Positions 1,440-42,825 of a stretch of DNA of 64,000 nt are shown piece by piece (position 1 is the stretch's first letter; each line of letters opens with the position of its first letter). The translations under genes and the position numbers were made by a program. The notes under the pieces are model-generated. The model did not search any database. It was given only the letters and a program-made list of their open reading frames with translations, and had not been told where the DNA came from. This stretch comes from a virus, in the IMG/VR virus record IMGVR_UViG_3300049601_000013, positions 1 through 64,000 of that record; one strand, given 5' to 3'.

Positions 1440-2405
1440 ATGTTGATCCTTTGCGACGGAACAGACGGCGCGGGCAAGTCGACGCTCGCCACGCGGCTCA
1501 CGGAGTACCTGGAACGTCACCGCCCCGGCGACACGGTCGAGCTGTGGCACGCGGGCAAGCCGACGACGCACCCCCTCGACGAGTACGTCACGCCCCTGCT
1601 CGGGTACCGGCCCGGACGTGGACACCACATCATCTGCGACCGCTGGCACTGGGGCGAGACCGTCTACCCGGTCATCAAGGGGCGACCCACGGACCTCGAC
1701 CGGCCGACGCACCGGTACACGGAGCTGTTCCTCCAGACGCGCGGCGCGTTGGGCGTGCACGTCTGGCGCGACGTGCACGAGCTGCAGGCGGTCTTCCGCG
1801 ACCGTGGCGAGTTCATCTTGACCGACGCCGAGCTCCACGAGACGCAGAAGCTCTTCACGGTCGCGTACAACGACTCCACGATCACGAAGCGCACGATTCG
1901 TCCCGATGAGGCGGACGTCGTGGAGTACATCGTCGCGGAGGCGGCGCGCGCCGAGCTTAAGGCACGATCCGTCGCGAGCCTCGTGACGTACGTCGGGCCC
2001 CCGCAGGCGGACACGTTGCTCTTGGGCGACGTTCGCTGCCCGGGCAATCACAACCCCGCGGGACCGGCGTTCACGCCGTATCCCGCCACATCGGGCGCGT
2101 TCCTGATGCGCGCTCTCCACGAGTCGGGCATGGCCGAGACCCTCACCGGTGGCCTGGGAATCGCGAACGCGTGCGACGTGGACTCCGTCGCCGACCTCGT
2201 CGCCAGCGTGCGGCCGTACGCGGTCGTCACGCTCGGGGCCAACGCGTGGAAGACGTACACCGGCGCGTTCGGCACGGAGGGTGTCGGCGCCGTTCCTCAC
2301 CCGCAGTACGTTCGCCGGTTCCATCACAAGCACTGCGCGGACTACGGCGCCGCCATCTCGGAGGCGTCATACTACCGAAGGGACATGCGCTCGTGGCGAC
2401 CCTGA
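1440..2405 (+). CDS. fusion protein: dTMP/dNMP-kinase-like P-loop domain plus uracil-DNA-glycosylase-superfamily (family 4-like) domain
   Basis: N-terminus ILCDGTDGAGKST and IICDRWHWGETVYP match thymidylate-kinase motifs. The C-terminal half has LLLGDVRCPG..GPAFTPYPATSGAFL and VPHPQYVRR, resembling UDG family 4 motifs A and B. Confidence 0.7.
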   Translation: MLILCDGTDGAGKSTLATRLTEYLERHRPGDTVELWHAGKPTTHPLDEYVTPLLGYRPGRGHHIICDRWHWGETVYPVIKGRPTDLDRPTHRYTELFLQTRGALGVHVWRDVHELQAVFRDRGEFILTDAELHETQKLFTVAYNDSTITKRTIRPDEADVVEYIVAEAARAELKARSVASLVTYVGPPQADTLLLGDVRCPGNHNPAGPAFTPYPATSGAFLMRALHESGMAETLTGGLGIANACDVDSVADLVASVRPYAVVTLGANAWKTYTGAFGTEGVGAVPHPQYVRRFHHKHCADYGAAISEASYYRRDMRSWRP

Positions 2406-3232
2406 TCACCGCACTCACCGGACCCGCGGCCTACCTGGAGCTGGTGCGGACCGTCGTCAAGAACGGCGTCAAGCGCTCTCCCCGCAACCAGGCGACGCGC
2501 GACCTCGGCATGACCGTCGTCGAGATCGAGCGGCCCCGACGCGCGACTCCCCTGGGCGTCGGCCGTGGACTCAACCGGCACATCATGGCCGCGGAGGCCG
2601 TCCAGCTCGTCGGCGCCTTCTCGGATGCCAACCTCATGCCCGCGACGTTCGAGCCGTACAAGGAGGCCGACGGCCGGTTCTGGGGGGCGTACGGTGACCG
2701 CATCGGCTTCCAGCTGATGGACGTCGTGCGCAAGATCCGGCAGGACCACGCGACGCGGCAGGCCGTCATCGCGCTGTGGAACCCGCACCTGGACAACGTG
2801 CCGTTCAAGAACGACTACCCCTGCACGCTCAACCTGACGTTCTCGACCGATGAGGACGGCTACCTCGACCTTGACGTCATCATGCGCAGCCAGGACGTCT
2901 GGCTCGGCACGCCCTACGACTGGTGCCAGTTCAGCGTGCTGCAGCAGACGGTGGCCACCCTGACCGACCGTGAGTGCGGGCTGTACCGTCACACGACGTT
3001 GTCCACGCACATCTACGAGCGCGACGTCGCCAAGGCGTTGGAGAAGCTCCATGACGAACCCGAGGAGGTCGAGGGTGACTCGTTCCCCGCAGGACTGGCG
3101 CGCCCCGGTGATACCCCTATGGAGACCATCCAGCGGGTCCGGCAGATCCCGTACGTCGACCGCGCGTACATGGTCCACGAGCACTGGTTCCGTGACGCCA
3201 TCCTCAAGGGACGAGGCAACCTGCATGCGTGA
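2393..3232 (+). CDS. thymidylate-synthase-family pyrimidine C5 transferase, predicted dCMP-specific (hydroxymethylase or methylase)
   Basis: TRQAVIALWN, YPCTLNLTF (catalytic Cys 2822-2824) and MRSQDVWLGTPYD align to ThyA RRIIVSAWN, PCH and RSCDVFLGLPFN. Asp (2918-2920) replaces Asn177. GTG 2393 overlaps the upstream stop. Confidence 0.8.
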   Translation: MATLITALTGPAAYLELVRTVVKNGVKRSPRNQATRDLGMTVVEIERPRRATPLGVGRGLNRHIMAAEAVQLVGAFSDANLMPATFEPYKEADGRFWGAYGDRIGFQLMDVVRKIRQDHATRQAVIALWNPHLDNVPFKNDYPCTLNLTFSTDEDGYLDLDVIMRSQDVWLGTPYDWCQFSVLQQTVATLTDRECGLYRHTTLSTHIYERDVAKALEKLHDEPEEVEGDSFPAGLARPGDTPMETIQRVRQIPYVDRAYMVHEHWFRDAILKGRGNLHA

Positions 3233-3695
3233 GCGTCCGTCGTGGGATGAGGTCTGGCTCGCGGTCGCGCAAGATGTCGCCGAGCGCTCCCTGTGCGAGC
3301 GCGACCGCGTCGGGGCCGTCATCGTGGACCACCGCAACCGTCCCGTTGCCGCGGGACACAACAACCCGCCGCGCAACTTCGATCACGGAAACCTCGGCTG
3401 CACCGCGTGGTGTACCCGGGCGGTCGACGGCGGCGGCGATGCGGAGTACTCGACGTGCCCCAGCCTGCACGCGGAGGCGAACGCGCTGATCGTAGGCGAT
3501 GAGTCGGCGCGGCAGGGCGGCACGATCTACGTCACCAGTCACATCTGCTTCACGTGCGCCAAGCTGGTGGCCAACTCGGGACTGGCGCGCGTCGTCGTGG
3601 CGCCGCACTTTCCCGCGCTGCACCGGGCACCTCAGACGGGCTACGTGCTGCTCAACCGATGCGGAGTGGAAGTGGAGATCAAGAATGTGCTGTGA
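3225..3695 (+). CDS. dCMP deaminase (cytidine/deoxycytidylate deaminase fold)
   Basis: Zinc motifs SLHAEANAL and CFTCAKL (HAE...PCxxC type). ATG 3225 overlaps the upstream stop. Confidence 0.85.
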   Translation: MRERPSWDEVWLAVAQDVAERSLCERDRVGAVIVDHRNRPVAAGHNNPPRNFDHGNLGCTAWCTRAVDGGGDAEYSTCPSLHAEANALIVGDESARQGGTIYVTSHICFTCAKLVANSGLARVVVAPHFPALHRAPQTGYVLLNRCGVEVEIKNVL

Positions 3696-3900
3696 CGGCT
3701 GCTGCACCCGACCGGAGCCGGTCGACGAGCGCGAGCTGCGAGCGGTGGTGGAGCGCGCCGTGTCCGACTTCGACTTCCACGTCTATGATGCGGACGTCGT
3801 GGCCACCGTCAACTCGATGGACGCCCGGCTCCAGACGTGGCGTCGCGCGCTGGTCGCCGACGTCACCGACGCGGTCACAAGTGTGGTGAGCACCGCGTGA
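3685..3900 (+). CDS. hypothetical small protein
   Basis: Internal ATG of the 3499..3900 ORF (MCCDGCCTRPEP...). It overlaps neighbouring genes at both ends and its codon bias looks coding. Confidence 0.45.
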   Translation: MCCDGCCTRPEPVDERELRAVVERAVSDFDFHVYDADVVATVNSMDARLQTWRRALVADVTDAVTSVVSTA

Positions 3901-10876: not shown

Positions 10877-10889
10877 TCGCCGCGTCGAC

Positions 10890-10918
10890 TTGAACAACCG
10901 CCGACGGTCTGGTACGTT
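10890..10918 (+). promoter_or_regulatory. sigma70-like promoter upstream of the glycosyltransferase operon
   Basis: TTGAAC (10890-10895), 17 nt spacer, TACGTT (10913-10918), with TGG just upstream of the -10. It lies in the 93-nt gap before ATG 10970. Confidence 0.45.
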
Positions 10919-10939
10919 CGCGCGTATCAGACCGTCGGC
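10900..10939 (+). promoter_or_regulatory. 12-bp perfect inverted repeat enclosing the predicted -10 box
   Basis: GCCGACGGTCTG (10900-10911) and CAGACCGTCGGC (10928-10939) are separated by a 16-nt loop containing TACGTT. It could be an operator or the terminator of the upstream operon. Confidence 0.5.
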
Positions 10940-10969
10940 CACCACGGCACGACAGAGACAAGGACGCGC

Positions 10970-12304
10970 ATGAAAATCTTGTATGGAAAGCTCGGTCGTG
11001 CCATGCCGTTGACCTTGGAAAAGTGCGGCACGCTGGGCGGCGACGTGGAGTGCATTCCCGTCGTCAAGGCGCTCGCCCAGCGGCATCCCGAGGACACCTT
11101 CTACCTCTTTGGCCGCAACTCCGGCGAGGTCGCCGAGGAGGCGGGGCTGCCGACGAACGTCGTCAACCCGTGGACCGAGTACGGCTGGCGCGACGAGCTT
11201 CGCGCGTTCATCAAGCGACACGAGATGAACGGCAACTTCACGGTCGCGCAGCAGCGGCAGCTGATCGCATTCATGGACGACATGGTGCGTCCGCTCGTGG
11301 ACGACACGGACGGCATCGTCGGCTGGATCGGACAGCACGGCACCACGAACCAGCCGACGCCCGGCATCACCAAGAAGTCCAGCGGGCAGCTTACGCGGCC
11401 GCAAGACTTCTCGGTGATCTACTGCAGCTTCTTCCTGAACGCGATCAACCGCTTCCGCGACGTCGACCCGTGGACGCGTGAGGAGGTCTGGCTCAACGCG
11501 GACTCGCGCAACTACCTCAAGATGCGCGACCTCGCGTGGCCGCTGGTCGAGCCGGTCCTCACCCAGCGGACGTACCAGCACACGATCCGACACGAGCGCG
11601 GCGACCGGCGCATCGCCGTGAATCACGACTGGCAGCAGCGCGTAGGCGCCCGCGAGCTGGACAAGCACGGGCATCACGTGTGGGAGTCCACCGTGAACTG
11701 CGTCTACTCGCGCCTGGAGATCAACGCACTGATGCCCGACACGCCCTTCGGCGACCTGGTGTCGTACAGCGACGACTTCGACCGGCCGGGCCGGTTCGGC
11801 CTCTTCATCAACGAGGCGCGGACGTACGTCTCCGACGCCACCAAGCGCGTCAACGCGCTGCGCGACTACGCGCTTCCGGTTCGTCCTCACTTCGTGCACG
11901 GCACGTGGTCAAAGCCGTCACAAGAAAGCTTGGGCATCACGATCACTCCCGCACCGTGGAGCGAGTACTACGCCAAGTTGCACAGCGTGAAGTGCACGCT
12001 GACGACGCCGTCCAGTGGGTCCGGCTTCGCGACCACCAAGCCGTGGGAGGCGTTCGCGGCGGGAACCGTCTGCTTCTTCCACCCCCGCTACGATGACCAG
12101 AATCACATTCTAGGCGGCCTTCCGGAGGTTGCCCAGCAGTGGCTACGGGTTAAGCATCCGGGAGACTTCCAGCGCAAGCTGCACGAGGTCTCGAACGACC
12201 GGGGGCTGTGGGAGTGGCTGGTCCGCGAGCAGCGCGAGTACTTCGAGCGCGAGATCGCCGACCTCCGTTACATCCAGCACATCGAGGAGAGGCTCTACGC
12301 ATGA
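10970..12304 (+). CDS. GT-B-fold glycosyltransferase, possibly a DNA (hydroxymethyl-base) glycosyltransferase
   Basis: N-terminal MKILYGKLG...GGDVECIPVVKAL...DTFYLFGRN and C-terminal TKPWEAFAAGTVCFFHPRYD loosely resemble T4 beta-glucosyltransferase (MKIAIINMG..SSETIYLF; RVWETMASDAVMLIDEEFD). It lies within the replication/modification operon. Confidence 0.5.
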   Translation: MKILYGKLGRAMPLTLEKCGTLGGDVECIPVVKALAQRHPEDTFYLFGRNSGEVAEEAGLPTNVVNPWTEYGWRDELRAFIKRHEMNGNFTVAQQRQLIAFMDDMVRPLVDDTDGIVGWIGQHGTTNQPTPGITKKSSGQLTRPQDFSVIYCSFFLNAINRFRDVDPWTREEVWLNADSRNYLKMRDLAWPLVEPVLTQRTYQHTIRHERGDRRIAVNHDWQQRVGARELDKHGHHVWESTVNCVYSRLEINALMPDTPFGDLVSYSDDFDRPGRFGLFINEARTYVSDATKRVNALRDYALPVRPHFVHGTWSKPSQESLGITITPAPWSEYYAKLHSVKCTLTTPSSGSGFATTKPWEAFAAGTVCFFHPRYDDQNHILGGLPEVAQQWLRVKHPGDFQRKLHEVSNDRGLWEWLVREQREYFEREIADLRYIQHIEERLYA

Positions 12305-13419
12305 CGTCGACGCGCGCCGCCATCATCAGCACGACGATCAACCCGATGCCCAACATGGAGTCGTGGCTCACGCACATGTCGCCGCGTGACGTCATGATCA
12401 TCGCGGGTGACCATAAGACCCCTCACGCCGAGATCGAGCGCATGGCGCGACGCGCGCGTGAGGAGTATGACCTCGACGTCACGTACGTTCGACCCGAGGT
12501 GCAGGGCCGCTGGCTGTCATCGGAGGTCCTCCCGTGGAACTGCATCCAGCGGCGTAACATCGCGATCCTCGAGGCGATCGACCGGACTCCCGAGTTCATC
12601 ATCACCATCGATGACGACAACTACCCAATGACCGACGTCACGCACATCGGCATGTCGTGGGTCGACCAGGTCGAGTGGGTTCTCATGCGACCGCACGACG
12701 TCGTCGTGGGCAGCTCCAACACCGGCTGGTTCAACCCCGGCGAGCTGTGCCGTCCCCGGGTGACGCACCGGGGATTCCCGTTCGGTCGTCGTCACGAGGA
12801 GACCGAGCTCGGGCTCAGCTTCAACGCGGGCAACCCCACGGTCGGCGTCTTCGCCGGACTGTGGTACGGCGACCCGGACATCGACGCGATCGAGCGCGTC
12901 GTCTCACAGCCGGACATCAAGATGATCGAGCAGGTCAACGTCACGCTCGCGCCGGGCACGTGGGCGCCCTTCAACTCGCAGTCCACCGCGTACCGCACCG
13001 AGCTGGCGCCGCTTATGATGTGCCTGCCTCACGTGGGTCGGATGGACGACATCTGGGCCAGCTACGTCGCGCGCACTGTCATGGATCACATCGGCTGGCT
13101 CGTCCAGTACGGTTCACCCACCGTCCGCCAGGACCGCAACCCGCACGACCTCTTCCGCGACATCCAGGCGGAGATGCTCGGGTACGAGCACACGCAACAC
13201 CTCTGCGACGTTCTTCGCGGCATTGAACTGCCCGCGACTTCGCACGTGGACGAGCTACTGACGTACGTGACCTCACACCTCACAGCACTTCCGTACGTTC
13301 CGGTTGGAACCCTGAATGCGTATGACGCGTGGAGCGACGACATCATACAGCTCGACGATCGTCACGCCGCCGCACGACTGTTCGACACCTCGAAGATGGG
13401 AAACGACAATGATGAGTGA
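12301..13419 (+). CDS. RGP/GT75-family (reversibly glycosylated polypeptide / UDP-arabinose mutase-like) glycosyltransferase
   Basis: FIITIDDDNYP, THRGFPFGRR, GLWYGDPDIDA and GRMDDIWASY align with plant RGP motifs FTIDDDCFV, RGYPFSLR, GLWLNIPDYDA and GRYDDMWAG. The ATG overlaps the upstream TGA. Confidence 0.7.
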   Translation: MTSTRAAIISTTINPMPNMESWLTHMSPRDVMIIAGDHKTPHAEIERMARRAREEYDLDVTYVRPEVQGRWLSSEVLPWNCIQRRNIAILEAIDRTPEFIITIDDDNYPMTDVTHIGMSWVDQVEWVLMRPHDVVVGSSNTGWFNPGELCRPRVTHRGFPFGRRHEETELGLSFNAGNPTVGVFAGLWYGDPDIDAIERVVSQPDIKMIEQVNVTLAPGTWAPFNSQSTAYRTELAPLMMCLPHVGRMDDIWASYVARTVMDHIGWLVQYGSPTVRQDRNPHDLFRDIQAEMLGYEHTQHLCDVLRGIELPATSHVDELLTYVTSHLTALPYVPVGTLNAYDAWSDDIIQLDDRHAAARLFDTSKMGNDNDE

Positions 13420-13945
13420 TTCGACCGACAACCTCGTCCGCCTGCTGGAGATGCAAGAGCGGCTCCAGCGGGAGGCGTATAAGACCGACCTGCGGGCGCT
13501 GCAGCCCGAGGAGCGCGTCGACTTCATCAAGGACATGGTGCTCGCCGCCACCGATGAGCTGCACGAGGCGCTCGCGGAGACCAGCTGGAAGCCGTGGGCG
13601 TCGACGTACGGCGACGTCCAGAGTGAGGCGTTCTTCAACGAGCTGGTGGACCTGCTACACTTCGTCATGAATCTCATGCTCGTCGCTCGCCAGGACCTGG
13701 AGCCGCGCGAGGTCGCCCAGCTGCTCGTCCAGCGGTACGAGGTCAAGAACGCGAAGAACCTCCAGCGGCAGGTCGAGGGCTACGACGGGAAGACCAACAA
13801 GTGCCCCGCGTGTAAGCGTGCCCTCGATGACGAGGCGGTCCGCTGCCGGCGCGTCACCGTCGACGACTTCGACGGGCCTCACCGGTTCTGGTGTTCACGT
13901 GATGCGGAGTTCTTTCACGCGGACGGCTCTCGCGCGCACTCCTAG
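13409..13945 (+). CDS. all-alpha NTP pyrophosphatase (dimeric dUTPase/dCTPase, MazG-like) with C-terminal zinc ribbon
   Basis: TDELHEALAETSWKPW and ELVDLLHFVMNL are typical of the dUTPase_2/MazG all-alpha family. The C-terminus reads CPACK...CRR..WC. Confidence 0.65.
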   Translation: MMSDSTDNLVRLLEMQERLQREAYKTDLRALQPEERVDFIKDMVLAATDELHEALAETSWKPWASTYGDVQSEAFFNELVDLLHFVMNLMLVARQDLEPREVAQLLVQRYEVKNAKNLQRQVEGYDGKTNKCPACKRALDDEAVRCRRVTVDDFDGPHRFWCSRDAEFFHADGSRAHS

Positions 13946-13994: not shown

Positions 13995-15665
13995 GTGACG
14001 TACAGGGCCGTGGACTGCCAGTCCTTCGCGGGCGGCTTCACGCTGGGAATGGTGCAGGCGGGTTTCGAGCTTACGGGAAAGCGTGAGCAGAAGGGTGGCT
14101 TTGGCACACCCAACTGTGAGGCCAACCGTCACCTGCTCGGCGACGGGTGGCAGGCGGAGGCGTGTTCACCTGAAGAGTGGACTGTACCGACAGCAACTAG
14201 TGATGTACTATTTGCTAATCCCCCGTGTTCGGGATTTTCGGTGATGAGCTCACGTGACTTTCGCGGAGCGGGTTCAGTCATCAACTCGTGCATGTGGGCC
14301 ACGATCGAGTACGCCGCTCGCGTTCGTCCAATTGTAGCCGTCTTCGAGTCGGTCCAGCTGGCCGCGAAAGAGGGTGAGGGACGCGAGCTGATGCGCGCGC
14401 TGCGCGACCGGCTCGAGGAGCTCACCGGCGACAAGTACCACCTGTACCACGTGTTGCACAACGCGTACTCCGTCGGCGGCGCGGGCATGCGGCGCCGGTA
14501 CTTCTGGCTCGCGTCCCGCGTGCCGTTCGGAATCGAGGAGCCGCTCATCCAGCGGTACCCGGTTCTCAACGAGGTCATCGGCGACCTGGTCGAGCAGCCG
14601 CTCGCGTGGGAGGCACGGCCGTACGCGAACCCCGCGCCGTCGTGGTGGGCGGCCACGCGTCGGAACGTCGGCTCGAACGGCGTTCCGGCGCACACGGTGG
14701 ACGGGCACGCGATGACCGAGTCGCCGCTTCACCTGCGCATCAAGGAGCTCATCGAGTGGGCAGACATGCGACCGCGCGAGCCCATACAGCACGCGCTTCG
14801 CCGCTGCTATGAGACGCACGGGTCGCTGCCGCCCTTGTGGAAGCACAACGAGGCGAAGCTGATCTCGCGCGACTTCTTCTCCGGCTTCACGGCGCCCGTC
14901 CGCTGGCAGGGCGACCTGCCGGCGCGCGTCATCACCGGCGGCGCGCTGGGCTCCGTGATTCACCCGACCCTCGACCGCACGATCACGCACCGTGAGACCG
15001 CCCGCGTCATGGGCTTTCCCGATGACTGGCTGATCGACCCGATCCCGCGCGGGGGTCTGGCACCCACGTGGGGCAAGGGCATCACCGTCGATTGCGGCCG
15101 GTGGATCGGCGAGTGGATCAGGGCCGCACTGGACGGCGCGCCCGGCACGTTCGCGGGCGACCTCGTCGGCGAGCGTGAGAGCTCGATCGACTGCACCAAC
15201 TCGTGGCAATCACAGGGCAAGATTGTGATCAAGTCTGGTAAGGTAGTACGGACTGCTGCGAAACGCAAAAACACACAGGGAGGAATCAGCATGTCCGAGG
15301 ACGTCAACGTGGAGAACGCGTCCCAGGCGGAGGCCACCGTCCCCGCCACCAACCGACGTGGCCGGCCACGTCCCGAGGTCACCATCGAACGCGATGCCGT
15401 CGTTCTGAAGGTGCTGGAGGCCGCGCCGTCCACCAAGGTGCAGGTCGCCGTGGAGACCGGCTTCAAGGAGAACGAGGTCTACCTCTCTCTGCACCGGCTG
15501 CAGAAGACCGGCAAGATCAAGCGTGTGCGCGACGGCGGGTCTCACATGTGGGAGGTGACCTCCTCGGAGGACGCTCCCGAGGTCGCCACCGCCGAACCCA
15601 CCGAGGCGACGCCGGCACCCGCGATCGAGCCGCAGGGTCCCGCGCAGCCGGAGTCGTGGATCTAA
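13995..15665 (+). CDS. DNA (cytosine-5) methyltransferase fused to a C-terminal winged-helix domain
   Basis: Motif I CQSFAGGFTLG, motif IV FANPPCSGFS, motif VI FESV and motif VIII GMRRRYFW. The C-terminal LEAAPSTKVQVAVETGFKENEVYLSLHRLQKTGKIKRV looks like a wHTH. Confidence 0.8.
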   Translation: MTYRAVDCQSFAGGFTLGMVQAGFELTGKREQKGGFGTPNCEANRHLLGDGWQAEACSPEEWTVPTATSDVLFANPPCSGFSVMSSRDFRGAGSVINSCMWATIEYAARVRPIVAVFESVQLAAKEGEGRELMRALRDRLEELTGDKYHLYHVLHNAYSVGGAGMRRRYFWLASRVPFGIEEPLIQRYPVLNEVIGDLVEQPLAWEARPYANPAPSWWAATRRNVGSNGVPAHTVDGHAMTESPLHLRIKELIEWADMRPREPIQHALRRCYETHGSLPPLWKHNEAKLISRDFFSGFTAPVRWQGDLPARVITGGALGSVIHPTLDRTITHRETARVMGFPDDWLIDPIPRGGLAPTWGKGITVDCGRWIGEWIRAALDGAPGTFAGDLVGERESSIDCTNSWQSQGKIVIKSGKVVRTAAKRKNTQGGISMSEDVNVENASQAEATVPATNRRGRPRPEVTIERDAVVLKVLEAAPSTKVQVAVETGFKENEVYLSLHRLQKTGKIKRVRDGGSHMWEVTSSEDAPEVATAEPTEATPAPAIEPQGPAQPESWI

Positions 15666-17681: not shown

Positions 17682-17718
17682 GTCAACGACCGTGCGGCGG
17701 TACGGTCGTTGACTTTTT
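17682..17718 (+). terminator. rho-independent terminator after the lysis cassette
   Basis: GTCAACGACCGT / ACGGTCGTTGAC stem followed by TTTTT. Confidence 0.8.
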
Positions 17719-17738
17719 AGTCACATGTGTTGTATAGT
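17709..17738 (+). promoter_or_regulatory. sigma70-like promoter
   Basis: TTGACT (17709-17714, inside the terminator stem and T-tract), 18 nt spacer, TATAGT (17733-17738). It precedes gene 17783. Confidence 0.55.
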
Positions 17739-17991: not shown

Positions 17992-18021
17992 TTGACATCG
18001 CGTCATATCATCTGATACATT
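17992..18021 (+). promoter_or_regulatory. sigma70-like promoter
   Basis: TTGACA (17992-17997), 18 nt spacer, TACATT (18016-18021). It precedes gene 18060. Confidence 0.5.
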
Positions 18022-18059
18022 AATCTCAGCACAACAACACGACACGACGGGAGATCACG

Positions 18060-18971
18060 ATGACCGACACGATGGTAACCACACGGTCCGTCCCGTGGAT
18101 GCAGCTGGGCAGCATCCTCGATGAGGAAGTCATGACGGCGGAGCGTGCGATCGACCTCGGTGGAATGGACTTCACCGTCTCCATGCAGCCGTGCTTCCAG
18201 CGGCTGAGCACCGGCACCTTCGCGGAGATCACAAACCGTAAGGCGGTCACGCGAGACGACACGGAGGAGGTCTTTGAGGTCGTCTCTGACGGCTACGAGA
18301 TCCTGCAGTTCGGCGAGGCGTTCGACTTCCTCGACGCGATCAACCCGCGGTTCGTCGCGGCGGGAACGCTCAAGGGTGGCAAGCAGGGCTTCGTCGTCGT
18401 GCAGGCGCCTGAGATGGAGTCGCTCAACCTGCTGGGTGATGACAAGCATGACATGTACGTCGTCGTGCGAACGTCGCACGACCGCTCCCGGGCGGTGGAG
18501 GCGATGATCATGCCTCTCCGTGAGAGGTGCATGAACCAGCTCGGGCTCCAGTCCTTCAAGGCGGGCGTCGCGAACCGCTGGTCCATCCCTCACACGAAGT
18601 CCATGCACGACAAGCTGATCGTCGCGCAGGACGCGATCACAAAGATCGACGTGTACGCGGATGAGCTCAAGAAGACGGCGGAGCGGCTCGCGGCGGCGAC
18701 CTTCTCCCGGGAGACCGGCGAGAAGCTGATCCGGCGGGTGCTGCCTCAGCGGCCGAAGACCGATGAGGTCGTGGCACGGATCCTGGACCTCTGGCAGCAC
18801 GGCGAGACGGTCGGCTACGCGGGCAACGGGTGGGGACTCGTCAACGCGGTGTCGGACTACTTCGACCACGGTCGCGCGGGCGGCTCGGCGGAGTCCCGGT
18901 TCACCGGGGCGCTGCAGGGTGTGACCTACAAAATGATCAACTCAACGGCGGCACTCGCGCTCGCGGCGTGA
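18060..18971 (+). CDS. DUF932/DUF945-family phage-plasmid protein
   Basis: DGYEILQFGEAFDFLD...GTLKGGKQGFVVVQ pattern typical of the family. It has its own promoter and terminator. Confidence 0.65.
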   Translation: MTDTMVTTRSVPWMQLGSILDEEVMTAERAIDLGGMDFTVSMQPCFQRLSTGTFAEITNRKAVTRDDTEEVFEVVSDGYEILQFGEAFDFLDAINPRFVAAGTLKGGKQGFVVVQAPEMESLNLLGDDKHDMYVVVRTSHDRSRAVEAMIMPLRERCMNQLGLQSFKAGVANRWSIPHTKSMHDKLIVAQDAITKIDVYADELKKTAERLAAATFSRETGEKLIRRVLPQRPKTDEVVARILDLWQHGETVGYAGNGWGLVNAVSDYFDHGRAGGSAESRFTGALQGVTYKMINSTAALALAA

Positions 18972-19458: not shown

Positions 19459-20520
19459 CTACCGGAGGCGTGCCGCCTCCTCCCAGACCTCCATCCAGCG
19501 ACTCGCGTGCTGGGCGTATGACAGCTTCTGTGCGGCCACACGTGCCTGCAGTCCACGAAGTCGACGGTACGACTCATCTTCCACGAGTCGCTTCAGCTCG
19601 CGGTACCACTCCTTGGGACGTTCGGCGAGAACGCCAATGCCCGTCTCCTCGTGCAGCTTGACGTACTCGGCGCGCGGTGACATGACGCAGGGTACGCCGA
19701 GGGCGGCGTACTCCAGCGGCTTCAGGTACGACTTCGCCGCGTTGAAGCGCGTGTTCGCCAGCGGCGCGATCCCGACTCCGATGCGCGTTACCGCGTGAGG
19801 CCAGTCGTCGATGTGCAGTGAACCCGTCGCCTCAACGTCATCCTCGCCGACTCCGAACGCGGTGGCCACGTGCTCGCGCGGGCCGGCGAAGCGAAAGGTC
19901 GCCCCGTTGTTCACCAGGCGCGCCACCGCGGGACCCACCTCGGGACCGTCGTCCGGGTGCGTCCACGCCGAGCCACACCAGCCGATCGTGTCGTTGTCCT
20001 CGTGCTCGATCTCCAAGTAGTGGTTCGGCACGAAGTTCGGAATGACGCGGGCGCCGTGAACGCCGCGGTACTTAAGCGCCAGCGCGTCACTGGAGACGAC
20101 GGTGAGCGTCGAGTTGCGCGCGGCGGTCTCCACGTGATGCCACGAGTGATCTTGTGTGAGTGTGTTGCCCGCCGTCTTGGGATGAAGTATCTTCCACGCC
20201 GGGTTGTTCGGGTGAATGGACGAGAGGTCATCGTCGATGTCCATGACGACCGCGACGCCCTGCCGACGCATCACCTCGATCGCCTGCGCCAGAAACTTGT
20301 GTGACACCCGTTGAAGCACGATGACGTCGGCATCCGACGGAAGTGACACACGCTTAACGACGCCGTTGGTGATCTCCGCGTGAAACTGGCCACGAGACTC
20401 CGGCGGCATCACCGTGACATCGTAGCCCTGCTTCTTAAGCTCTTCCGCCGGCCAGATGATGCGAAAGTGACCGCAGCCGGTCGCGTCCGCCGGGTAAGCA
20501 TAGATCTTCATACTTACCAC
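19459..20520 (-). CDS. glycosyltransferase, GT-B (GT1/GT4-like)
   Basis: MKIYAYPADATGCGHFRIIWPAEEL..VVMDIDDD..; the C-terminal half has the typical GT-B nucleotide-sugar-binding layout. An alternative ATG lies at 20511. Confidence 0.7.
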   Translation of the reverse strand: MVSMKIYAYPADATGCGHFRIIWPAEELKKQGYDVTVMPPESRGQFHAEITNGVVKRVSLPSDADVIVLQRVSHKFLAQAIEVMRRQGVAVVMDIDDDLSSIHPNNPAWKILHPKTAGNTLTQDHSWHHVETAARNSTLTVVSSDALALKYRGVHGARVIPNFVPNHYLEIEHEDNDTIGWCGSAWTHPDDGPEVGPAVARLVNNGATFRFAGPREHVATAFGVGEDDVEATGSLHIDDWPHAVTRIGVGIAPLANTRFNAAKSYLKPLEYAALGVPCVMSPRAEYVKLHEETGIGVLAERPKEWYRELKRLVEDESYRRLRGLQARVAAQKLSYAQHASRWMEVWEEAARLR

Positions 20521-20735
20521 GTGCTCGCGTCAAAACCATGCACGAGATCCCGAATAAACAACTCTGCCGCAGCCTCCGTCGCAAATGAACCCGAAGTGGC
20601 AACACGTGCGCTGCCACCGGAAACATTCGCGATTTCTACGTTCCAGTTGGATGGACCATCTTGGATTGCGTAGATGGAAAAGACTTGCGCCAAGTTGACG
20701 TAGCTGCCGTCAATGATTTTGATGAAGCCATTCAC
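20514..20735 (-). CDS. hypothetical small protein
   Basis: GTG 20735 forms a GTGA overlap with the upstream GT2 stop. The 73-aa product has no recognisable motif. Confidence 0.4.
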   Translation of the reverse strand: MNGFIKIIDGSYVNLAQVFSIYAIQDGPSNWNVEIANVSGGSARVATSGSFATEAAAELFIRDLVHGFDASTW

Positions 20736-21313: not shown

Positions 21314-21861
21314 CAGCGATCCGCCCTTCCACTGGTGTTGCCGGTGCCGTGATGCCAGCGCCAGGTACGTTGAGGAAGATGCACGATCTTTGCACCCAGC
21401 TCAATGCAGCGCAACGTGAAATCCCAGTCCTCACCACCGCCTGCATCTCGGAACCCGACCTCTTGAGCAAGCTTCGTTCGCACCATGGTGGTAACCGTGG
21501 TGTGATGCGGATCATTGACGTCGTATGTCTTTCCGAAATGCTGAGGAAACGGGTCGAATCCATTGACGACTTCGAACCATGAAAAGACGTAGTCCGCACC
21601 GGTCGCGGCGGCCATGCTGATCAGCCTTGCAACGTGCTCAGGCATGAACTCATCATCATCATCAAGGAACGCGACCCAGTCCGTCTGAATCGCGTTCAGT
21701 GCGCGCTGCCGGTTGCCGGCCGCCCCGAGCCGTTCGTGGTCGACCGAGATGCTCAGCTGCCGGACCGGGTAGGTCTGACTCAGTACGGATCCAACGGCCC
21801 GCTGGAGGAGGTCTGCCCGCACTGGAATGCTCGGTATGGCGACGCCGACGGTGTCAGGCAT
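21310..21861 (-). CDS. glycosyltransferase family 2 (GT-A), paralog of 20732..21313
   Basis: VAIPSIPVR...VLSQT...AGNRQRAL...VAFLDDDDEFMPEH. It ends HGTGNTSGRADRW. ATG 21861 overlaps the upstream TGA. Confidence 0.8.
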   Translation of the reverse strand: MPDTVGVAIPSIPVRADLLQRAVGSVLSQTYPVRQLSISVDHERLGAAGNRQRALNAIQTDWVAFLDDDDEFMPEHVARLISMAAATGADYVFSWFEVVNGFDPFPQHFGKTYDVNDPHHTTVTTMVRTKLAQEVGFRDAGGGEDWDFTLRCIELGAKIVHLPQRTWRWHHGTGNTSGRADRW

Positions 21862-22441
21862 GCGTGGCACCCCAGATCTGATATGTGTAGTACGCGCTGG
21901 GTCCGGTCGGCGTGAAGAGCATATGATTGCTTGGCGCCCAACCCGCCTGCTCCAGGAGGTCCAGAACGCCGTGCTCATCCCAGCCCCAGTAGTGCTCAGG
22001 ATTATTAGCGTCCTGCTCGTCTCGAGGGGTCGACAGTATCAGCTGACTCGCGTGATTGCGAATCTTCACCAGCAGCTCGTGAGGCTTATCGATGTGCTCA
22101 AGCGTCTCTGACAGGACGAAGAGGTCGACGTAGCCAATGAGGTCGATGGTGCGCTCGATCGCGCCGGTGAACGCGTACTCATCGTTGTGCACGTAGTCGC
22201 CCAAGATGACCAGGCGTGTGCCCTCGATGTTACGCGCGATGGTCGCATCGCCGCACGACAGGTCCGCGACGATGCGCCGCGCACTCGGCGCCGTCCACGC
22301 GTGGATGCAGTCCAGCGTCGCATTCACACGCTGGATGTGATCCTCCCAGCGGGTGTGATCGTACTGCTTGGCATACACGGTGTGAAGTTCTTCCGGCGTG
22401 TACGCCGGTCGCAGTCGGCGAATGCTCACCGTGTTACGCAC
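21854..22441 (-). CDS. class I SAM-dependent methyltransferase
   Basis: IVADLSCGDATIA (motif I-like) and DLFVLSETLEHIDKP (motif-IV-region pattern of small-molecule/O-methyltransferases). Confidence 0.65.
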   Translation of the reverse strand: MRNTVSIRRLRPAYTPEELHTVYAKQYDHTRWEDHIQRVNATLDCIHAWTAPSARRIVADLSCGDATIARNIEGTRLVILGDYVHNDEYAFTGAIERTIDLIGYVDLFVLSETLEHIDKPHELLVKIRNHASQLILSTPRDEQDANNPEHYWGWDEHGVLDLLEQAGWAPSNHMLFTPTGPSAYYTYQIWGATHA

Positions 22442-23112
22442 CTCGCAACGATCTTATCAGCATCCAACTGAAGCTGCTCTTCGAGGTATTGTCGAAAGAG
22501 TCGGCCGTCGTTCTCGTACATCTCTCCGGAGTTGACCTCCGCGTACCGCTCATCCCAGGCGGCCTTGCCGGCGACGGGATGCATGTGCTCAATGATGACG
22601 TCGTTGATGTACGCCAGCCGCTGGAGCCGCATGCCCAGCGCCTTCCAGAAGTCATCGAGGTAGAGGTGGATCATGCCGGGCGGCACCATGTATCCGAGCG
22701 TCTCGATGATGCACGACGACATCCAGACGGCGGTCGGCAGGTTGACCCCCTGGATGAGGTCGTTGCCGTAGGCGAGGCCGACGCCGCCGAGCGTCGCGAT
22801 GCTCGCGGCGAGGCGCTGATCCCACCCGTACGTTCGCGGACGGTGATCGTCGCCCATGAAGCCGATGATGTCGTAGTTGTCCGCGTAGAACGTCGCGAAG
22901 TCGTTGAGCGTTGGGCCGAGGCGCTTACGCGAAGTGACCGCGAAGCGAACCCAGTTGGGCGCGTCGACGAGCGCCGCGCGGTAAGACTCCAACGTCTCAT
23001 CGTCATCATCGACGACGATCAAGAGCTCCGCGTAAGATCGCGTGTCACGCCACGACTGGATCAAGTTGGTGATGTTGTCCGGTCGTCCACGAGACGGAAC
23101 GATGACGAGCAT
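22426..23112 (-). CDS. GT-A-like glycosyltransferase
   Basis: MLVIVPSRGRP...LLIVVDDDDE...GFMGDDH. ATG 23112 follows GGGAGGTAGAG. Confidence 0.55.
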   Translation of the reverse strand: MLVIVPSRGRPDNITNLIQSWRDTRSYAELLIVVDDDDETLESYRAALVDAPNWVRFAVTSRKRLGPTLNDFATFYADNYDIIGFMGDDHRPRTYGWDQRLAASIATLGGVGLAYGNDLIQGVNLPTAVWMSSCIIETLGYMVPPGMIHLYLDDFWKALGMRLQRLAYINDVIIEHMHPVAGKAAWDERYAEVNSGEMYENDGRLFRQYLEEQLQLDADKIVARCVTR

Positions 23113-23146
23113 CTCTACCTCCCAGTGAGAGATCTCCACGGTCGCG

Positions 23147-23869
23147 CTACACGAACGCCACCGCGAATGGATATTCTACCGCGGGTCCCGCGTACTGGAT
23201 GCTGACGTAGCGCGGTCGGCCGGTGTCGGCGCCCCAGGTCGATGTGGAAGACAACGTTTGCCCGGTAAGTACCAGGTCTGTGACCTGCGTTCCGGTGTTA
23301 TTGATGAAGTAACCCACGTGCCGCATTGACGCTTGCACAAGTCCCTGTCCCACGAATGCATCCGATGCGGTGAGAACCTGACCTGCGGCGTTGGTCTCAC
23401 GAAGCCTAAAAAACGTGAAGAGTCCCGCGCCAGCGAGAAGCCAGCCGTCGATCTCGACCCTGTACGCCGCGCCACTCATGAGGTTGAATCGTGAGAACGT
23501 CTCCAGCACGGTCTCGGTTGTGGTGATGGTCGTGGCGTGGTTGGTGAAGCCACCCTCTTCATACCGCTGGACACTTGTGGAGCTGATAATGCCTACCACA
23601 TAGTTGCCCGCGGGCGGCACAAACATCACCATGACACGCATGCCGACCGCGAGTCCTCCAGCCAGCGATGCGGCGATGATCGTCGTGCTCTCATCATCGC
23701 CGTCGAGCTGCACGCGCGGGTTGTACGGCCCACCGGCCGCGGTCGTGTCCACGACAAGTCCCGGCCGTAGTCCCCACGTCAGGCCCAGGCGTCGTGCTTG
23801 CGTCACCAGCTCATCGACGCTTGCCAGTGAGACGGTCTGCGTAATCGTAGGATCAACGGGTGTGCTCAT
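23147..23869 (-). CDS. minor tail protein (distal tail/fibre module)
   Basis: Last gene of the tail block. ATG 23869 overlaps the upstream stop. The protein looks beta-rich with no enzymatic motif. Confidence 0.5.
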   Translation of the reverse strand: MSTPVDPTITQTVSLASVDELVTQARRLGLTWGLRPGLVVDTTAAGGPYNPRVQLDGDDESTTIIAASLAGGLAVGMRVMVMFVPPAGNYVVGIISSTSVQRYEEGGFTNHATTITTTETVLETFSRFNLMSGAAYRVEIDGWLLAGAGLFTFFRLRETNAAGQVLTASDAFVGQGLVQASMRHVGYFINNTGTQVTDLVLTGQTLSSTSTWGADTGRPRYVSIQYAGPAVEYPFAVAFV

Positions 23870-39152: not shown

Positions 39153-41336
39153 CTACCTCCCACGGACCCGGTTGCGAATTTCATCCATGCGCGACTTGTC
39201 GTCGCGTCCCACGCGGTTCTTCAGGCTGGCGATGACGCTCTGCAGCGCCCTCGTCTCGCCGCTGCTCTGCGTCAGCTTCGGCTTCGGCTTCGCCTCGGCA
39301 ACGATGGTGTAGGGGTTGACGCCCGCCGCGACGAGTGTCGTCTGGACTCCCCGGCGCGCCGCGGTCTTCACCCGCGGAACCGGGAAGCCTGGGACGTTGA
39401 CGGCGAGAAGTGCGATGAGCCGCAGCCCGTTGCCGAAGCGGCGCCAGTCTCCGGACAGCTTCGCGGCGCGCAGCGTGCGCAGGCGCAGGGGCGAGAGGTT
39501 CGGACGAAGTGCTCCGGAGAACCACAGGCCGTACTGGTCCTCGCCGGTGACGACGTCCGCGACCGCCGCGCCGGTGTGGTCATAGTGGTCGATGGCTTGG
39601 ACGGCGGTAAGCTTACCGCCGGTCGACGCGTGACCGGTTCCGAGGGTGATGGTGCCGGTGGCGACGGTGTTCCCGTCCGCCGTCAGCGTCTCTCCCAGCA
39701 TGAAGTACTCGTGGAACCGCTCACGTGGCGGCGTTACGCACTGGCCCGAGAAGCCGGTGTGGCACGTTCCCCAGACGGCGGCGTGTCCGTAGATGCGACC
39801 ATCTTCGGTGACGGTGAGTGGCGTCGGTCCCGCCAGCTTGGGGTCATCGAACCACTCACGAGGCGGCGCCTCATCGGTGCAGCCGCAGGCGGTCAACTCG
39901 GCGCGGGCGTCGATGTGACCGGCGAATTGCGCCTCATCATCCTCATCTTCGTCATCGACGTCGTCTTCCTCCGACGACTCCACGGCCATGCTTACGCTCG
40001 CGGACGCGCGAGGTTCGATGGCGAAGTCGGCGTCATCCGGCTCGACCGTGGCCTCGCCGGCATCCAGCATCTGGCCCTCGAGCGCGATGGACGCCTCCAC
40101 GAAGGCGGGGAACTGGACGAGCGTCGCGCCGCGCAGTCGACCGCGGTGAAAGATCGTCAGCTCCGGCGCGGCGAAGAGGTCGCCGAATCCCTCGGCATCC
40201 GCGGCCGCGTCAGACTTCGGGAAGACGAGCTCGACATCCGAGTCCTTGACCGAGTCGACGTCGCCGGACACGCCGCGCAAGAACTTCTGCTCGACCTGGC
40301 GGTACGCCTCGGCGCCGTCATCCCCCTCCAGGTCGAAGACTCCGCGTCCCCAGATCTCGTTGTTCTCGCGCCAGAGCTCATCGATGCGGCCGGCCTGGAC
40401 CGCGGTCTTGTGCCCCTCATCGGTCTGCTTCTGCCACATGAGCGGCAGCGGAAGCGGCGCCGAGCGCAGTGAGCCCTCCGCAAACATGCGACCGTCGCCC
40501 GACTCAACCCCCTCGACGATGAGGACACCGGACCACGCGCCAACCTCGCCGGGCGCCGCCTGGACATCACTTGCGACGTCCGAAGAAGCCTGCGTCACGT
40601 TCATCACCTCATTTTCGCGATCATTGTAGCGCATCGTGAAGCTTTGTTCAGTCGAGTAGCTCTCATCGTCGTACGTCTCATCCGCATTCACCGGCTCTGC
40701 GTCGGCAGCCTCGAAGTTGTCGGTGAGGTCGAAGTCGTAGACCTCATCACCCATGGCCAGTCGAATGCGGTCAAATGTGATGTCCCCGGTGCGGTCAGCC
40801 AGCGACTCCACGAGCGAGTGATCATCGGTGTACGCGAGCGTCACGTGTGGGATCCACGGCTCGTGTTGCTCCGGAATCGCGACGCTGTGGTCCGTCATTC
40901 GGCCGAGTACGCGCTCTCGAATCTTTCGGCAGATGTCGTGAAGACCCGCACCGCTCAGCCCCAGCGTGATGCACGTGTCACGTTCAACGTTGTGGGGGTT
41001 GAACAATGACACGTTAAAGCCGTCCGCGACGACGGGGCCGGTCTCTTCGTCGGCGATCTCGGCGAGCTCGGACAACATCACGTTGAATGACTCTTCGGTG
41101 TGCTCACCGATGTCACCCAGGAAGATCACCGTGCAGTGAAGGTCCTCGCCGTACTCACCTCCGTCGAGCATAAGTCGCTCGGCGTTGCCCACCGTGGGGA
41201 TCAGGGCGATCATGCCGTTGTGAGAGTTGTCGCCCGCGGCGGTTAGCTCTTCCGCCTCCGGCGCACTGAGCACCAGGTCCACGTTGTCCGGGTCCGTGAC
41301 CGCGGTAAGCGTCGTTTCTTCCGTGGGCATCGTCAT
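39153..41336 (-). CDS. capsid maturation protease with N-terminal 2H-phosphoesterase (LigT-like) domain
   Basis: Two HxTx motifs, DLHCTVIFLG and IPHVTLAYT, lie about 97 aa apart. Then come prohead-protease-type segments LIVEGVESGDGRMFAEGSLRSAPLPLPLMWQ and GRIYGHAAVWGTCHTGFSGQCVTPP. Confidence 0.75.
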   Translation of the reverse strand: MTMPTEETTLTAVTDPDNVDLVLSAPEAEELTAAGDNSHNGMIALIPTVGNAERLMLDGGEYGEDLHCTVIFLGDIGEHTEESFNVMLSELAEIADEETGPVVADGFNVSLFNPHNVERDTCITLGLSGAGLHDICRKIRERVLGRMTDHSVAIPEQHEPWIPHVTLAYTDDHSLVESLADRTGDITFDRIRLAMGDEVYDFDLTDNFEAADAEPVNADETYDDESYSTEQSFTMRYNDRENEVMNVTQASSDVASDVQAAPGEVGAWSGVLIVEGVESGDGRMFAEGSLRSAPLPLPLMWQKQTDEGHKTAVQAGRIDELWRENNEIWGRGVFDLEGDDGAEAYRQVEQKFLRGVSGDVDSVKDSDVELVFPKSDAAADAEGFGDLFAAPELTIFHRGRLRGATLVQFPAFVEASIALEGQMLDAGEATVEPDDADFAIEPRASASVSMAVESSEEDDVDDEDEDDEAQFAGHIDARAELTACGCTDEAPPREWFDDPKLAGPTPLTVTEDGRIYGHAAVWGTCHTGFSGQCVTPPRERFHEYFMLGETLTADGNTVATGTITLGTGHASTGGKLTAVQAIDHYDHTGAAVADVVTGEDQYGLWFSGALRPNLSPLRLRTLRAAKLSGDWRRFGNGLRLIALLAVNVPGFPVPRVKTAARRGVQTTLVAAGVNPYTIVAEAKPKPKLTQSSGETRALQSVIASLKNRVGRDDKSRMDEIRNRVRGR

Positions 41337-42340: not shown

Positions 42341-42825
42341 TACTTGTCTCGCTTCTCGCCGGGCCAGTGGCCGGTCGCCTCGTGGTAGAGGTTGGCGCAC
42401 AAGCCCTCAACGTTTGACGGAAAGTGCTCGCGCAGCTCGCTGGTGCAGCGTCGGAACGAGCCCTCCGTGCCCCACCTGATCTTCGCCGCGCCCTCGCCAC
42501 GAAGCCAGTAGTCTTGAAGCTCACGAGGCATGCGCGACTGCAGCTCCGTTCGCGCCGCCTGCGCGACGGGTCCGGTGACGTCGACGTTCCACCCAGCTGA
42601 TGCCAACACTTCATTCACGTGGGCGGCGGGCGTCTGAAAGATGGCCGCGTACTGCTCGTCAGTGAGACCATTGTTGTCGAGGTCTTCGTCCTCGACGGGA
42701 TTCTCCGGCGACGGCGGCTCCTCCCGAATGAAGAGCGCGTTTTCCGGGTCAGAGACGCTCGTCAGAACGCCCGGGTACGCGGGCTGGTAAGTGGCCCACG
42801 GGTCTTCGTCGGTCGGCGTTGTCAT
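42340..42825 (-). CDS. hypothetical head-module protein
   Basis: N-terminal MTTPT..SVSDPENALF leader. C-terminal YWLRGEGAAKIRWGTEGSFRRC...GLCANLYHEATGHWPGE is a conserved actinophage head-module motif. Confidence 0.55.
   Translation of the reverse strand: MTTPTDEDPWATYQPAYPGVLTSVSDPENALFIREEPPSPENPVEDEDLDNNGLTDEQYAAIFQTPAAHVNEVLASAGWNVDVTGPVAQAARTELQSRMPRELQDYWLRGEGAAKIRWGTEGSFRRCTSELREHFPSNVEGLCANLYHEATGHWPGEKRDK

Follow-up and report, generated by a model that had tools for sequence, protein, structure and literature searches.

The three-gene operon considered here (ORFs A, B and C) occupies positions 10970-13945 of a 64,000-nucleotide stretch of viral DNA, hereafter the window (positions 1 to 64,000 of IMG/VR virus record IMGVR_UViG_3300049601_000013), and its closest described counterparts belong to phage DNA hypermodification on the one hand and to sugar-nucleotide biosynthesis on the other. 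In its logic and in its enzyme classes, the predicted pathway resembles the 5-hydroxymethylcytosine (hmC) pathway of phage T4, which employs gp42, gp1, gp56 and the DNA beta-glucosyltransferase (BGT) of family GT63. The glycosylated 5-hydroxycytosine (5hoC) systems found in RB69, DLP3 and the Rhizobium phage RL38J1 are also comparable, in that they contain a thymidylate synthase (TS) homolog, a thymidylate-kinase-like kinase, a dCTPase, GT-B transferases and a phage-encoded supply of nucleoside diphosphate (NDP) sugars (PMC13326640). These phages differ from the window phage in that their TS homologs carry D169N and make 5hoC, and in that their hosts are Gram-negative (PMC13326640). RL38J1 is predicted to use a pyranose/furanose mutase in its 5hoC pathway, the FAD-dependent Glf (PMC13326640), which is unrelated to the GT75 enzyme of the window phage and is the sole pyranose mutase tied to phage DNA sugars in the literature searched. 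Arabinosyl-hmC in RB69, which a preliminary description of this DNA had offered as a precedent, has been revised to arabinosyl-5-hydroxycytosine and is made without a GT75 enzyme (PMC13326640).

GT75 proteins have a GT-A fold and an intrinsic arginine self-glycosylating activity (PMC9937993). Within this family, the Mn-dependent enzyme MtdL converts GDP-L-fucopyranose and GDP-L-galactopyranose to their furanose forms, and the second of these conversions serves the biosynthesis of the antibiotic A201A (PMC9937993). ORF B is clearly homologous to MtdL and Hyg20, the GT75 GDP-L-galactose/L-fucose pyranose mutases, and differs from them in its setting, being phage-encoded beside a DNA-type glycosyltransferase, whereas MtdL resides in an antibiotic cluster. 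The plant reversibly glycosylated polypeptides (RGPs), which are UDP-L-arabinopyranose mutases, belong to the same Pfam family as ORF B and have its catalytic motifs in common, but are far more distant from it than is MtdL. The literature searched contains no description of hmC glycosylation in actinophages and no GT75 enzyme tied to DNA modification; viral GT75 genes are mentioned there only as cell-wall or carbon auxiliary metabolic genes (AMGs) in soils.

The operon is best read as serving sugar transfer within a T4-style pathway of cytosine hypermodification that would yield DNA carrying furanosyl-hmC, a reading to which we assign a probability of roughly 0.6. Its three genes are as follows.

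10970-12304, plus strand: ORF A, 444 aa, a GT-B fold glycosyltransferase of a phage family without a name; predicted DNA (5-hmC) glycosyltransferase.
12301-13419, plus strand: ORF B, 372 aa, a GT75 (RGP-family) protein; predicted Mn-dependent NDP-pyranose to NDP-furanose mutase.
13409-13945, plus strand: ORF C, 178 aa, an all-alpha dimeric dUTPase/dCTPase-family NTP pyrophosphatase; predicted cleanser of the dCTP/dUTP pool.

The three co-directional, overlapping genes claimed in the preliminary description are thus confirmed, and its by-eye assignments of their products (a BGT-like GT-B enzyme, an RGP/GT75 protein and a dCTPase/dUTPase-like protein) are all upheld, as is its interpretation overall. 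As an account of the sequence it is partly borne out: the genes, their motifs and a true 4-nt ATGA overlap at the A/B junction are as described, but the B/C junction, which had also been called ATGA-type, is an 11-nt overlap (ATGATGAGTGA, 13409-13419), and the gap ahead of ORF A is not unique, as detailed below. A megablast search of the operon against 50,697 phage records returns no match, and the operon therefore has no close cultured relative.

Sequence searches with ORF A, whether with the single sequence or with a profile, return no match in Pfam, PHROG, NCBIfam or the PDB. An AlphaFold (AF2) model built from a 28-sequence alignment is confident (pLDDT 88.8, pTM 0.86), and its best six Foldseek matches in the PDB are all T4 BGT (E 2.5e-8 to 7e-7; TM 0.62-0.67 on the target), to which its two-Rossmann-domain GT-B fold is closest. 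The next matches are to other GT-B enzymes, namely MshA, BshA, LmbT, OtsA and the glycosyltransferase of phage HY126. Among the predicted viral structures of BFVD, the second match is labelled "DNA beta-glucosyltransferase" (4.7e-17). Judged from the model, ORF A is BGT-like in fold and lies outside GT63; membership in that family was rejected because ORF A falls in no Pfam family and aligns to T4 BGT only weakly and locally with hhalign. Homologs number 632 at E < 0.001 in a set of 5.8 billion proteins (362 cluster representatives at 50% identity), all of them metagenomic or viral and many on contigs 60-66 kb in length. The 185,579 cellular genomes scanned contain no homolog, so that ORF A offers no prophage or host clue. 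From its genomic context, the acceptor of ORF A is probably hmC in duplex DNA.

For ORF B, the Pfam RGP family (PF03214) scores 32.2 bits against a gathering threshold (GA) of 23.8, over residues 19-315, and the MtdL structures 7yua/7xpr match at 6e-33. The RGP match also withstands profile searching: a profile of 32 clade members scores MtdL at 200 bits (4.3e-58) versus 42 bits (3.7e-10) for the plant UDP-arabinopyranose mutase 8cid. The motifs that had been singled out as plant-RGP-like (DDDNYP, RGFPF, GLWYGDPDIDA and GRMDDIW) are present and coincide with GT75 catalytic residues, yet ORF B is far closer to MtdL than to the plant mutases. By these sequence measures ORF B is a true GT75 enzyme. 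When the MtdL residues described in PMC9937993 are mapped onto ORF B and the alignment of the 32 clade sequences, DDD104-106 corresponds to the DXD motif and R157 (MtdL R159, within HRGFPF) to the self-glycosylated nucleophilic arginine, both of which are invariant in the 32 sequences. Also kept in ORF B are D193 (GDPDIDA), S226-Q227 (NSQ), R247 and D250 (GRMDDIW), and R279 and H282 (RNPH), the counterparts of which in MtdL are D195, S228-Q229, R257, D260, R289 and H292; MtdL Asn42 is replaced by Lys. By analogy with MtdL, ORF B is likely to act as an NDP-pyranose/furanose mutase.

Two MtdL positions govern the choice between GDP and UDP (PMC9937993). They are occupied by T11 and C81 in ORF B, by Thr13 and Ser86 in MtdL, and by Pro and Asp in plants, so that ORF B keeps the threonine of MtdL as well as a small residue at position 86. 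These base contacts suggest that the substrate of ORF B is GDP-linked, and UDP-arabinose is not favoured because ORF B has Thr and Cys where the plant enzymes have Pro and Asp. A plant-like Pro does occur at the first of these positions in one sub-clade of related phages (L017, L025, L035-L037 and L047 in the numbering of related loci introduced below).

ORF C matches the dUTPase_2 family (PF08761) at 43.8 bits (threshold 22.9) and phrog_18650 at 2e-35, and it aligns over its full length with the T4 dCTPase/dUTPase gp56 in BLASTP (1e-8). Its homolog adjoins the sugar module in nearly all relatives, and by analogy with gp56 it would have dCTPase activity. A Cys-rich C-terminal extension (residues ~128-178, window 13790-13945) contains a CPACK...C...C pattern with weak zinc-ribbon-like Pfam hints; T4 gp56 lacks this extension.

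The hydroxyl group to which a sugar could be attached would be supplied upstream. On the plus strand, the replication arm runs in the order kinase, TS homolog, dCMP deaminase, family A polymerase, SNF2 helicase, PD-(D/E)XK nuclease, AAA_24 ATPase, DUF669 protein, the operon and a C5-methylase-like gene, with the sugar module placed behind a conserved promoter element. The members of this arm that bear on cytosine modification are the following.

1440-2405, plus strand: nucleotide kinase, candidate 5-hm-dCMP kinase; a thymidylate-kinase-like P-loop domain fused to a weakly UDG-like C-terminal domain.
2393-3232, plus strand: thymidylate-synthase homolog (PF00303, 78.8 bits); predicted dCMP hydroxymethylase (5-hm-dCMP synthase).
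3225-3695, plus strand: dCMP deaminase, 156 aa, with HAE and CxxC motifs in the translation.
13995-15665, plus strand: C5 cytosine DNA methyltransferase-like protein, 556 aa (PF00145, 66.4 bits).

Aligned to T4 gp42 and numbered as E. coli ThyA, the TS homolog has C146, L143D and N177D, retains D169, and displays the motifs NDYPC, RSQD and PYDW. According to the rules proposed for such homologs, N177D denotes a dCMP substrate, an acidic residue at 143 a non-methyl product, and D169N the 5-hydroxy-dCMP synthases (PMC13326640). Because the signature is that of T4 gp42, 5-hm-dCMP is the predicted product and would provide the hydroxyl acceptor; because D169 is kept, hmC rather than 5hoC is predicted, and 5hoC as the acceptor, as in RB69, was rejected on the same signature. 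The signature is identical in 20 of 20 related loci and in Actinomycetia phage DSL-LC01, a metagenome-assembled phage discussed below. It is conceivable that the TS homolog instead makes 5-hydroxy-dCMP, 5-methyl-dCMP or 5-hm-dUMP and that any sugar is placed on the corresponding base: the product rules are correlational and derive from a small number of tested enzymes, the nearest cultured homologs include the dUMP hydroxymethylases of SPO1 and SP-10, and a C5-methylase is conserved in the module. Such a base is nevertheless very improbable, for N177D indicates dCMP over dUMP, L143D speaks against a methyl product, and D169 is retained in 21 of 21 sequences while D169N is present in all tested 5hoC synthases (PMC13326640). 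A TET/JBP-type route from 5-methylcytosine was also considered and set aside, no 2-oxoglutarate oxygenase being present among the annotated ORFs (small ORFs were only partly scanned).

The kinase gene is always immediately upstream of the TS homolog, and its fusion length of ~320 aa is kept in relatives and in DSL-LC01; its Pfam matches are weak (Thymidylate_kin, AAA_22, and the UDG superfamily at 23.2 bits against a GA of 24.3). The deaminase corresponds in position to the protein annotated dCMP_cyt_deam in related loci L001 and L002 and in DSL-LC01. The C5-methylase-like protein has FAGG, PPC and ESV motifs discernible by eye and a C-terminal winged-helix-like region (weak PaaX/TrmB). Its gene starts 49 nt past ORF C, possibly on the same transcript, and its homolog comes next after that of ORF C in ~35 loci and is also found in DSL-LC01. 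Two adjacencies of the T4 genome, in which b-gt lies by gene 42 (a glycosyltransferase near the hydroxymethylase) and gene 56 by a DNA methylase, are echoed in this arrangement. The differences from T4 are that the kinase is thymidylate-kinase-like, not gp1-like, that ORF A stands outside the BGT sequence family, that a mutase is added, and that the phage is unrelated, siphovirus-type and borne by a high-GC actinobacterium.

Forty-seven related loci were fetched (designated by L numbers), of which ~42 are informative for the slot beside ORF A. The order of replication genes, DUF669 gene, ORF A, sugar genes, dUTPase_2 gene and C5-methylase gene is kept across the fetched loci. A GT75 gene directly adjoins ORF A, on either side, in ~32 of the ~42; the informative loci without GT75 instead possess an NDP-sugar activation cassette (an APH-like kinase and a nucleotidyltransferase, to which a HAD phosphatase or an SDR epimerase may be added), and none of the ~42 has ORF A without a neighbouring sugar-donor gene. 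The cassettes fall into these types.

GT75 plus an SDR epimerase of ~300 aa, 4-epimerase type: 18 loci.
GT75 plus a GDP-mannose 3,5-epimerase (GME): one locus, L029 (11265-12257; 8e-64 to plant GME).
GT75 alone: ~8 loci, this window included.
APH-like sugar kinase plus nucleotidyltransferase, with or without a HAD phosphatase or SDR, and without GT75: ~6 loci.

Examples of the last type are L002 (11316-14269) and L021 (11349-13412), both of which combine an APH-like kinase with a HAD phosphatase and a nucleotidyltransferase, L002 having an SDR as well. These kinase/nucleotidyltransferase cassettes resemble the NDP-arabinose genes that RB69 and DLP3 carry. GME, the enzyme paired with GT75 in L029, is known to produce GDP-L-galactose.

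Relatives encode WhiB, and the window polymerase is nearest to those of actinophages. The window has a G+C content of 64.4%, with strong third-position GC bias in its genes; the genome extends to at least 64 kb, a gene being cut at the window end, and related contigs are ~60-66 kb long. The window phage is a soil-type lytic phage of an actinobacterial host with a siphovirus-type genome. A distant ORF A homolog (24% identity) is found in Pseudoalteromonas phage vB_Psh_XG4 (L052 3019-7549, 29% G+C), where a dUTPase_2 homolog and a fragmentary match to the C5-methylase lie no more than 4 kb from it; no TS homolog is seen within 16 kb. Part of the module may thus be present in a low-GC marine phage.

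Phage DSL-LC01 (OQ999401, 129 kb) provides an independent comparison. It has homologs of the kinase, TS homolog, deaminase, polymerase, DUF669 protein, NTP pyrophosphatase and C5-methylase in the same order, and its record annotates no DNA-modification role. The slot corresponding to ORFs A and B (L050 285-3906, which is OQ999401 93284-96905) contains a glycosyltransferase followed by a FAD-type UDP-galactopyranose mutase (Pfam GLF, 105 bits), together with a 329-aa protein without a family match and a MazG-like pyrophosphatase. The 329-aa protein was compared with the SDR epimerase of the relatives, and equivalence was rejected. Unlike the window, DSL-LC01 thus has a FAD-type Glf as its mutase in place of GT75 and a glycosyltransferase that is not detectably related to ORF A, hhalign finding no relationship between the two. 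From these sequences, it looks as though both the glycosyltransferase and the mutase of the slot have been replaced by non-orthologous enzymes. Because two unrelated pairs with the same predicted activities reside in the same slot, the comparison, though indirect, strongly suggests that ORF B provides the adjoining transferase with a furanose donor.

A pathway of the following kind can be proposed. The TS homolog (2393-3232) would hydroxymethylate dCMP, the thymidylate-kinase-like kinase together with the host NDP kinase would bring the product to 5-hm-dCTP, and the phage family A polymerase would incorporate it. ORF C would hydrolyse dCTP and dUTP, such that plain C and U are excluded and dCMP is returned to the hydroxymethylase. 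ORF B would convert a host-made NDP-pyranose to the NDP-furanose through the glycosyl-arginine route proposed for MtdL, and ORF A, whose gene is translationally coupled to ORF B, would move the furanose onto hmC in duplex DNA, at its hydroxymethyl group. The expected outcome, furanosyl-hmC DNA, would withstand restriction and CRISPR nucleases.

The identity of the sugar can be narrowed to some extent. The additional NDP-sugar mutase makes UDP-glucose an improbable donor. The preliminary description had proposed an arabinose-type or otherwise non-glucose DNA sugar. A non-glucose sugar on hmC is independently supported by the hydroxymethylase-signature TS homolog, kinase and deaminase upstream, by the conserved pairing of ORF A and GT75, and by the glycosyltransferase and UDP-galactopyranose mutase of DSL-LC01; arabinose, by contrast, is the least favoured, in view of the MtdL and plant profile scores and the GDP-type residues of ORF B. 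GDP-linked sugars resembling L-galactofuranose or L-fucofuranose are pointed to by those same residues and by the GME partner in L029, and D-galactofuranose by the Glf of DSL-LC01 and the 4-epimerase-type SDR partners. In a rough apportioning, the GDP-linked L-galactofuranose or L-fucofuranose type is a tentative first choice, some sugar other than those named here is somewhat less probable and rather doubtful, D-galactofuranose is unlikely, and L-arabinofuranose is a slim prospect.

Several observations weigh against furanosyl-hmC DNA. The pathway is deduced from the genes of an uncultured phage. The cassette in this window is without a gene for making the pyranose donor, and the host must provide the pyranose substrate because the phage cassette encodes no pyranose-forming enzyme. 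The conserved C5-methylase is hard to reconcile with a complete replacement of C, and the closest cultured relatives of ORF C are proteins of small Microbacterium phages (48% identity) that are annotated as plain dUTPases. Moreover, the modelled likeness of ORF A to BGT is one of fold only: hhalign of the ORF A profile with T4 BGT gives a probability of 38% over 65 columns at ~10% identity, confined to the C-terminal nucleotide-binding helix, and in the Foldseek search other GT-B enzymes are just 10-100 times weaker than BGT in E-value.

Enzymes with non-DNA acceptors stand among these close runners-up, and it could be that the glycosyltransferase and the GT75 enzyme act on virion proteins, host envelope glycans or a small molecule, as an auxiliary metabolic or virion-glycosylation module. 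Soil-virome papers call viral GT75 genes cell-wall-related AMGs (PMC11032446, PMC12016548), and in Synechococcus phage S-T4 the GT75 homolog has heptose, fucosyltransferase and 4-epimerase genes as neighbours, which is a polysaccharide-type cluster rather than a DNA context. The window itself has further GT1, GT2 and methyltransferase genes by the tail genes, as well as an RmlB-like gene, which again counts against a role in DNA. A non-DNA acceptor is nonetheless unlikely. The best structural matches of ORF A are to a DNA enzyme, BGT; in ~40 loci the module keeps its place, with the replication genes on one side and the genes for the NTP pyrophosphatase and DNA methylase on the other, and it always occurs together with a TS homolog of dCMP-hydroxymethylase signature; and inspection of the ORF A translation and AF2 secondary structure, with no predictor run, reveals no signal-peptide or membrane features. 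Virion glycosylation would fall more naturally to the separate GT1/GT2 cluster by the tail genes.

Two substitutions in ORF B also weigh on the adverse side. The Mn ligand His287 of MtdL is Gln in ORF B and in all 29 related phage sequences covering the position, a change that could alter or abolish the metal-dependent mutase chemistry, and loss of His287 together with Arg257 marks the inactive AtRGP5 (PMC9937993). In addition, Asp87 of MtdL is Ile throughout the phage clade, ORF B included, and the sugar pocket of ORF B would therefore differ from that of MtdL. With both positions changed clade-wide, the chemistry may not be that of MtdL, and the DNA could be glycosylated with ORF B serving as a second glycosyltransferase, for a distal sugar or for glycosyl-arginine priming, while ORF A uses a host pyranose donor such as UDP-glucose. 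The GT-A fold and arginine self-glycosylation of GT75 proteins would suit such a role, and RB69, DLP3 and RL38J1 are known to have multi-sugar chains that several glycosyltransferases assemble (PMC13326640). This arrangement is quite improbable, however, considering that the same slot of DSL-LC01 holds a bona fide FAD-type UDP-galactopyranose mutase, that L029 pairs GT75 with GME, the substrate-supplying partner of MtdL-type mutases, and that the mutase-essential residues R159, D195, D260, R257 and S228-Q229 (MtdL numbering) are invariant or nearly so.

Base glycosylation by a T4-like pathway is already known; what would be new here is the transferase family, the family of the donor-forming enzyme and the modular sugar cassettes. 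A broader proposal, to which we would give a little less than even odds, is that a large clade of uncultured soil-type actinophages makes furanosyl-5hmC DNA, in which case hmC would bear a furanose, and GT75 have a part in nucleic-acid modification, for the first time, and that a single BGT-like transferase is fed by interchangeable cassettes to give "DNA serotypes" reminiscent of O-antigens, the GT75 "AMGs" of soil viromes being anti-restriction genes. Furanosyl-hmC in these phages would extend T4-style cytosine glycosylation to phages of high-GC actinobacteria and would constitute a new DNA hypermodification chemistry, with a furanose provided by a metal-dependent GT75 mutase. One DNA glycosyltransferase family combined with swappable cassettes would offer a comparative series in which sugar identity can be set against restriction, type IV and CRISPR defences, and new enzymes for site-specific hmC labelling could be obtained. 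The ecology of soil viromes would be affected too, since viral GT75 genes are currently read there as cell-wall or carbon AMGs, and the sequencing and cloning of such phages would be a concern, hypermodified DNA being poorly cut and liable to under-representation.

Upstream of ORF A, the 93-nt gap at 10877-10969 contains two elements that can be read from the sequence.

10890-10918, plus strand: promoter-like element; -35 TTGAAC (10890-10895), a 17-nt spacer, then TACGTT; extended -10 TGGTACGTT (10910-10918).
10900-10939, no strand assigned: near-perfect palindrome with an 18-bp stem and a 4-nt loop, enclosing the -10 element.

A promoter ahead of the operon had been proposed previously, and although a strict sigma-70 scan does not flag it, it is supported by the conservation of TGnTAnnnT, which in 26 of 40 distinct related loci lies no more than 150 nt past the stop codon of the DUF669 gene upstream (chance expectation 0.08 per 160 nt). 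The gap had been taken for the sole sizeable one in the arm, but another, of 93-141 nt (3696-3836), precedes the DNA polymerase gene. Folded as DNA, the palindrome has an energy of -20.3 kcal/mol (z = -6.74), which none of 200 shuffles equals, and comparable hairpins flank or follow the -10 element in relatives L002, L004, L010, L026 and L037. It may be an operator or the transcript-end hairpin of the upstream genes.

Elsewhere in the window, a second sugar cluster is located at the distal end of the tail genes.

19462-20529, 21857-22453 and 22429-23175, all minus strand: a GT1-type glycosyltransferase (phrog_7162), a methyltransferase-like protein and a GT2-type glycosyltransferase (phrog_14945).

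The GT1 and GT2 genes are also present in L002, and the cluster could serve to place more sugars on the DNA or to glycosylate proteins of the virion. At 63072-64000 on the minus strand is the RmlB-like dTDP-glucose 4,6-dehydratase gene (PDB 1bxk, 2.8e-37), which is truncated by the window edge. It was considered as a source of the donor and set aside, its best 80 IMG/VR relatives never lying within 10 kb of ORF A, ORF B, ORF C or the TS homolog.

Downstream of the replication arm, a terminator-like hairpin with a 14-bp stem and a T-run (17682-17713, plus strand) is immediately succeeded by a pair of strong sigma-70-like promoters (17709-17738 and 17992-18021, both 10/12), which stand ahead of a DUF932 gene (18024-18971). 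Among the structural genes, a 750-aa fusion (46625-48874, minus strand) joins a Mu F-like head-morphogenesis protein to a C-terminal ADP-ribosyltransferase (ART) exotoxin domain (PF03496, 61 bits), and a protein encoded near the portal gene (41336-42406, minus strand) has a weak ART-like match; both may be injected enzymes that modify the host. Finally, a 760-aa protein of the portal region (39156-41435, minus strand) has portal and protease PHROG matches, and its N-terminal residues 65-242 match an "RNA ligase" PHROG (2.6e-26).

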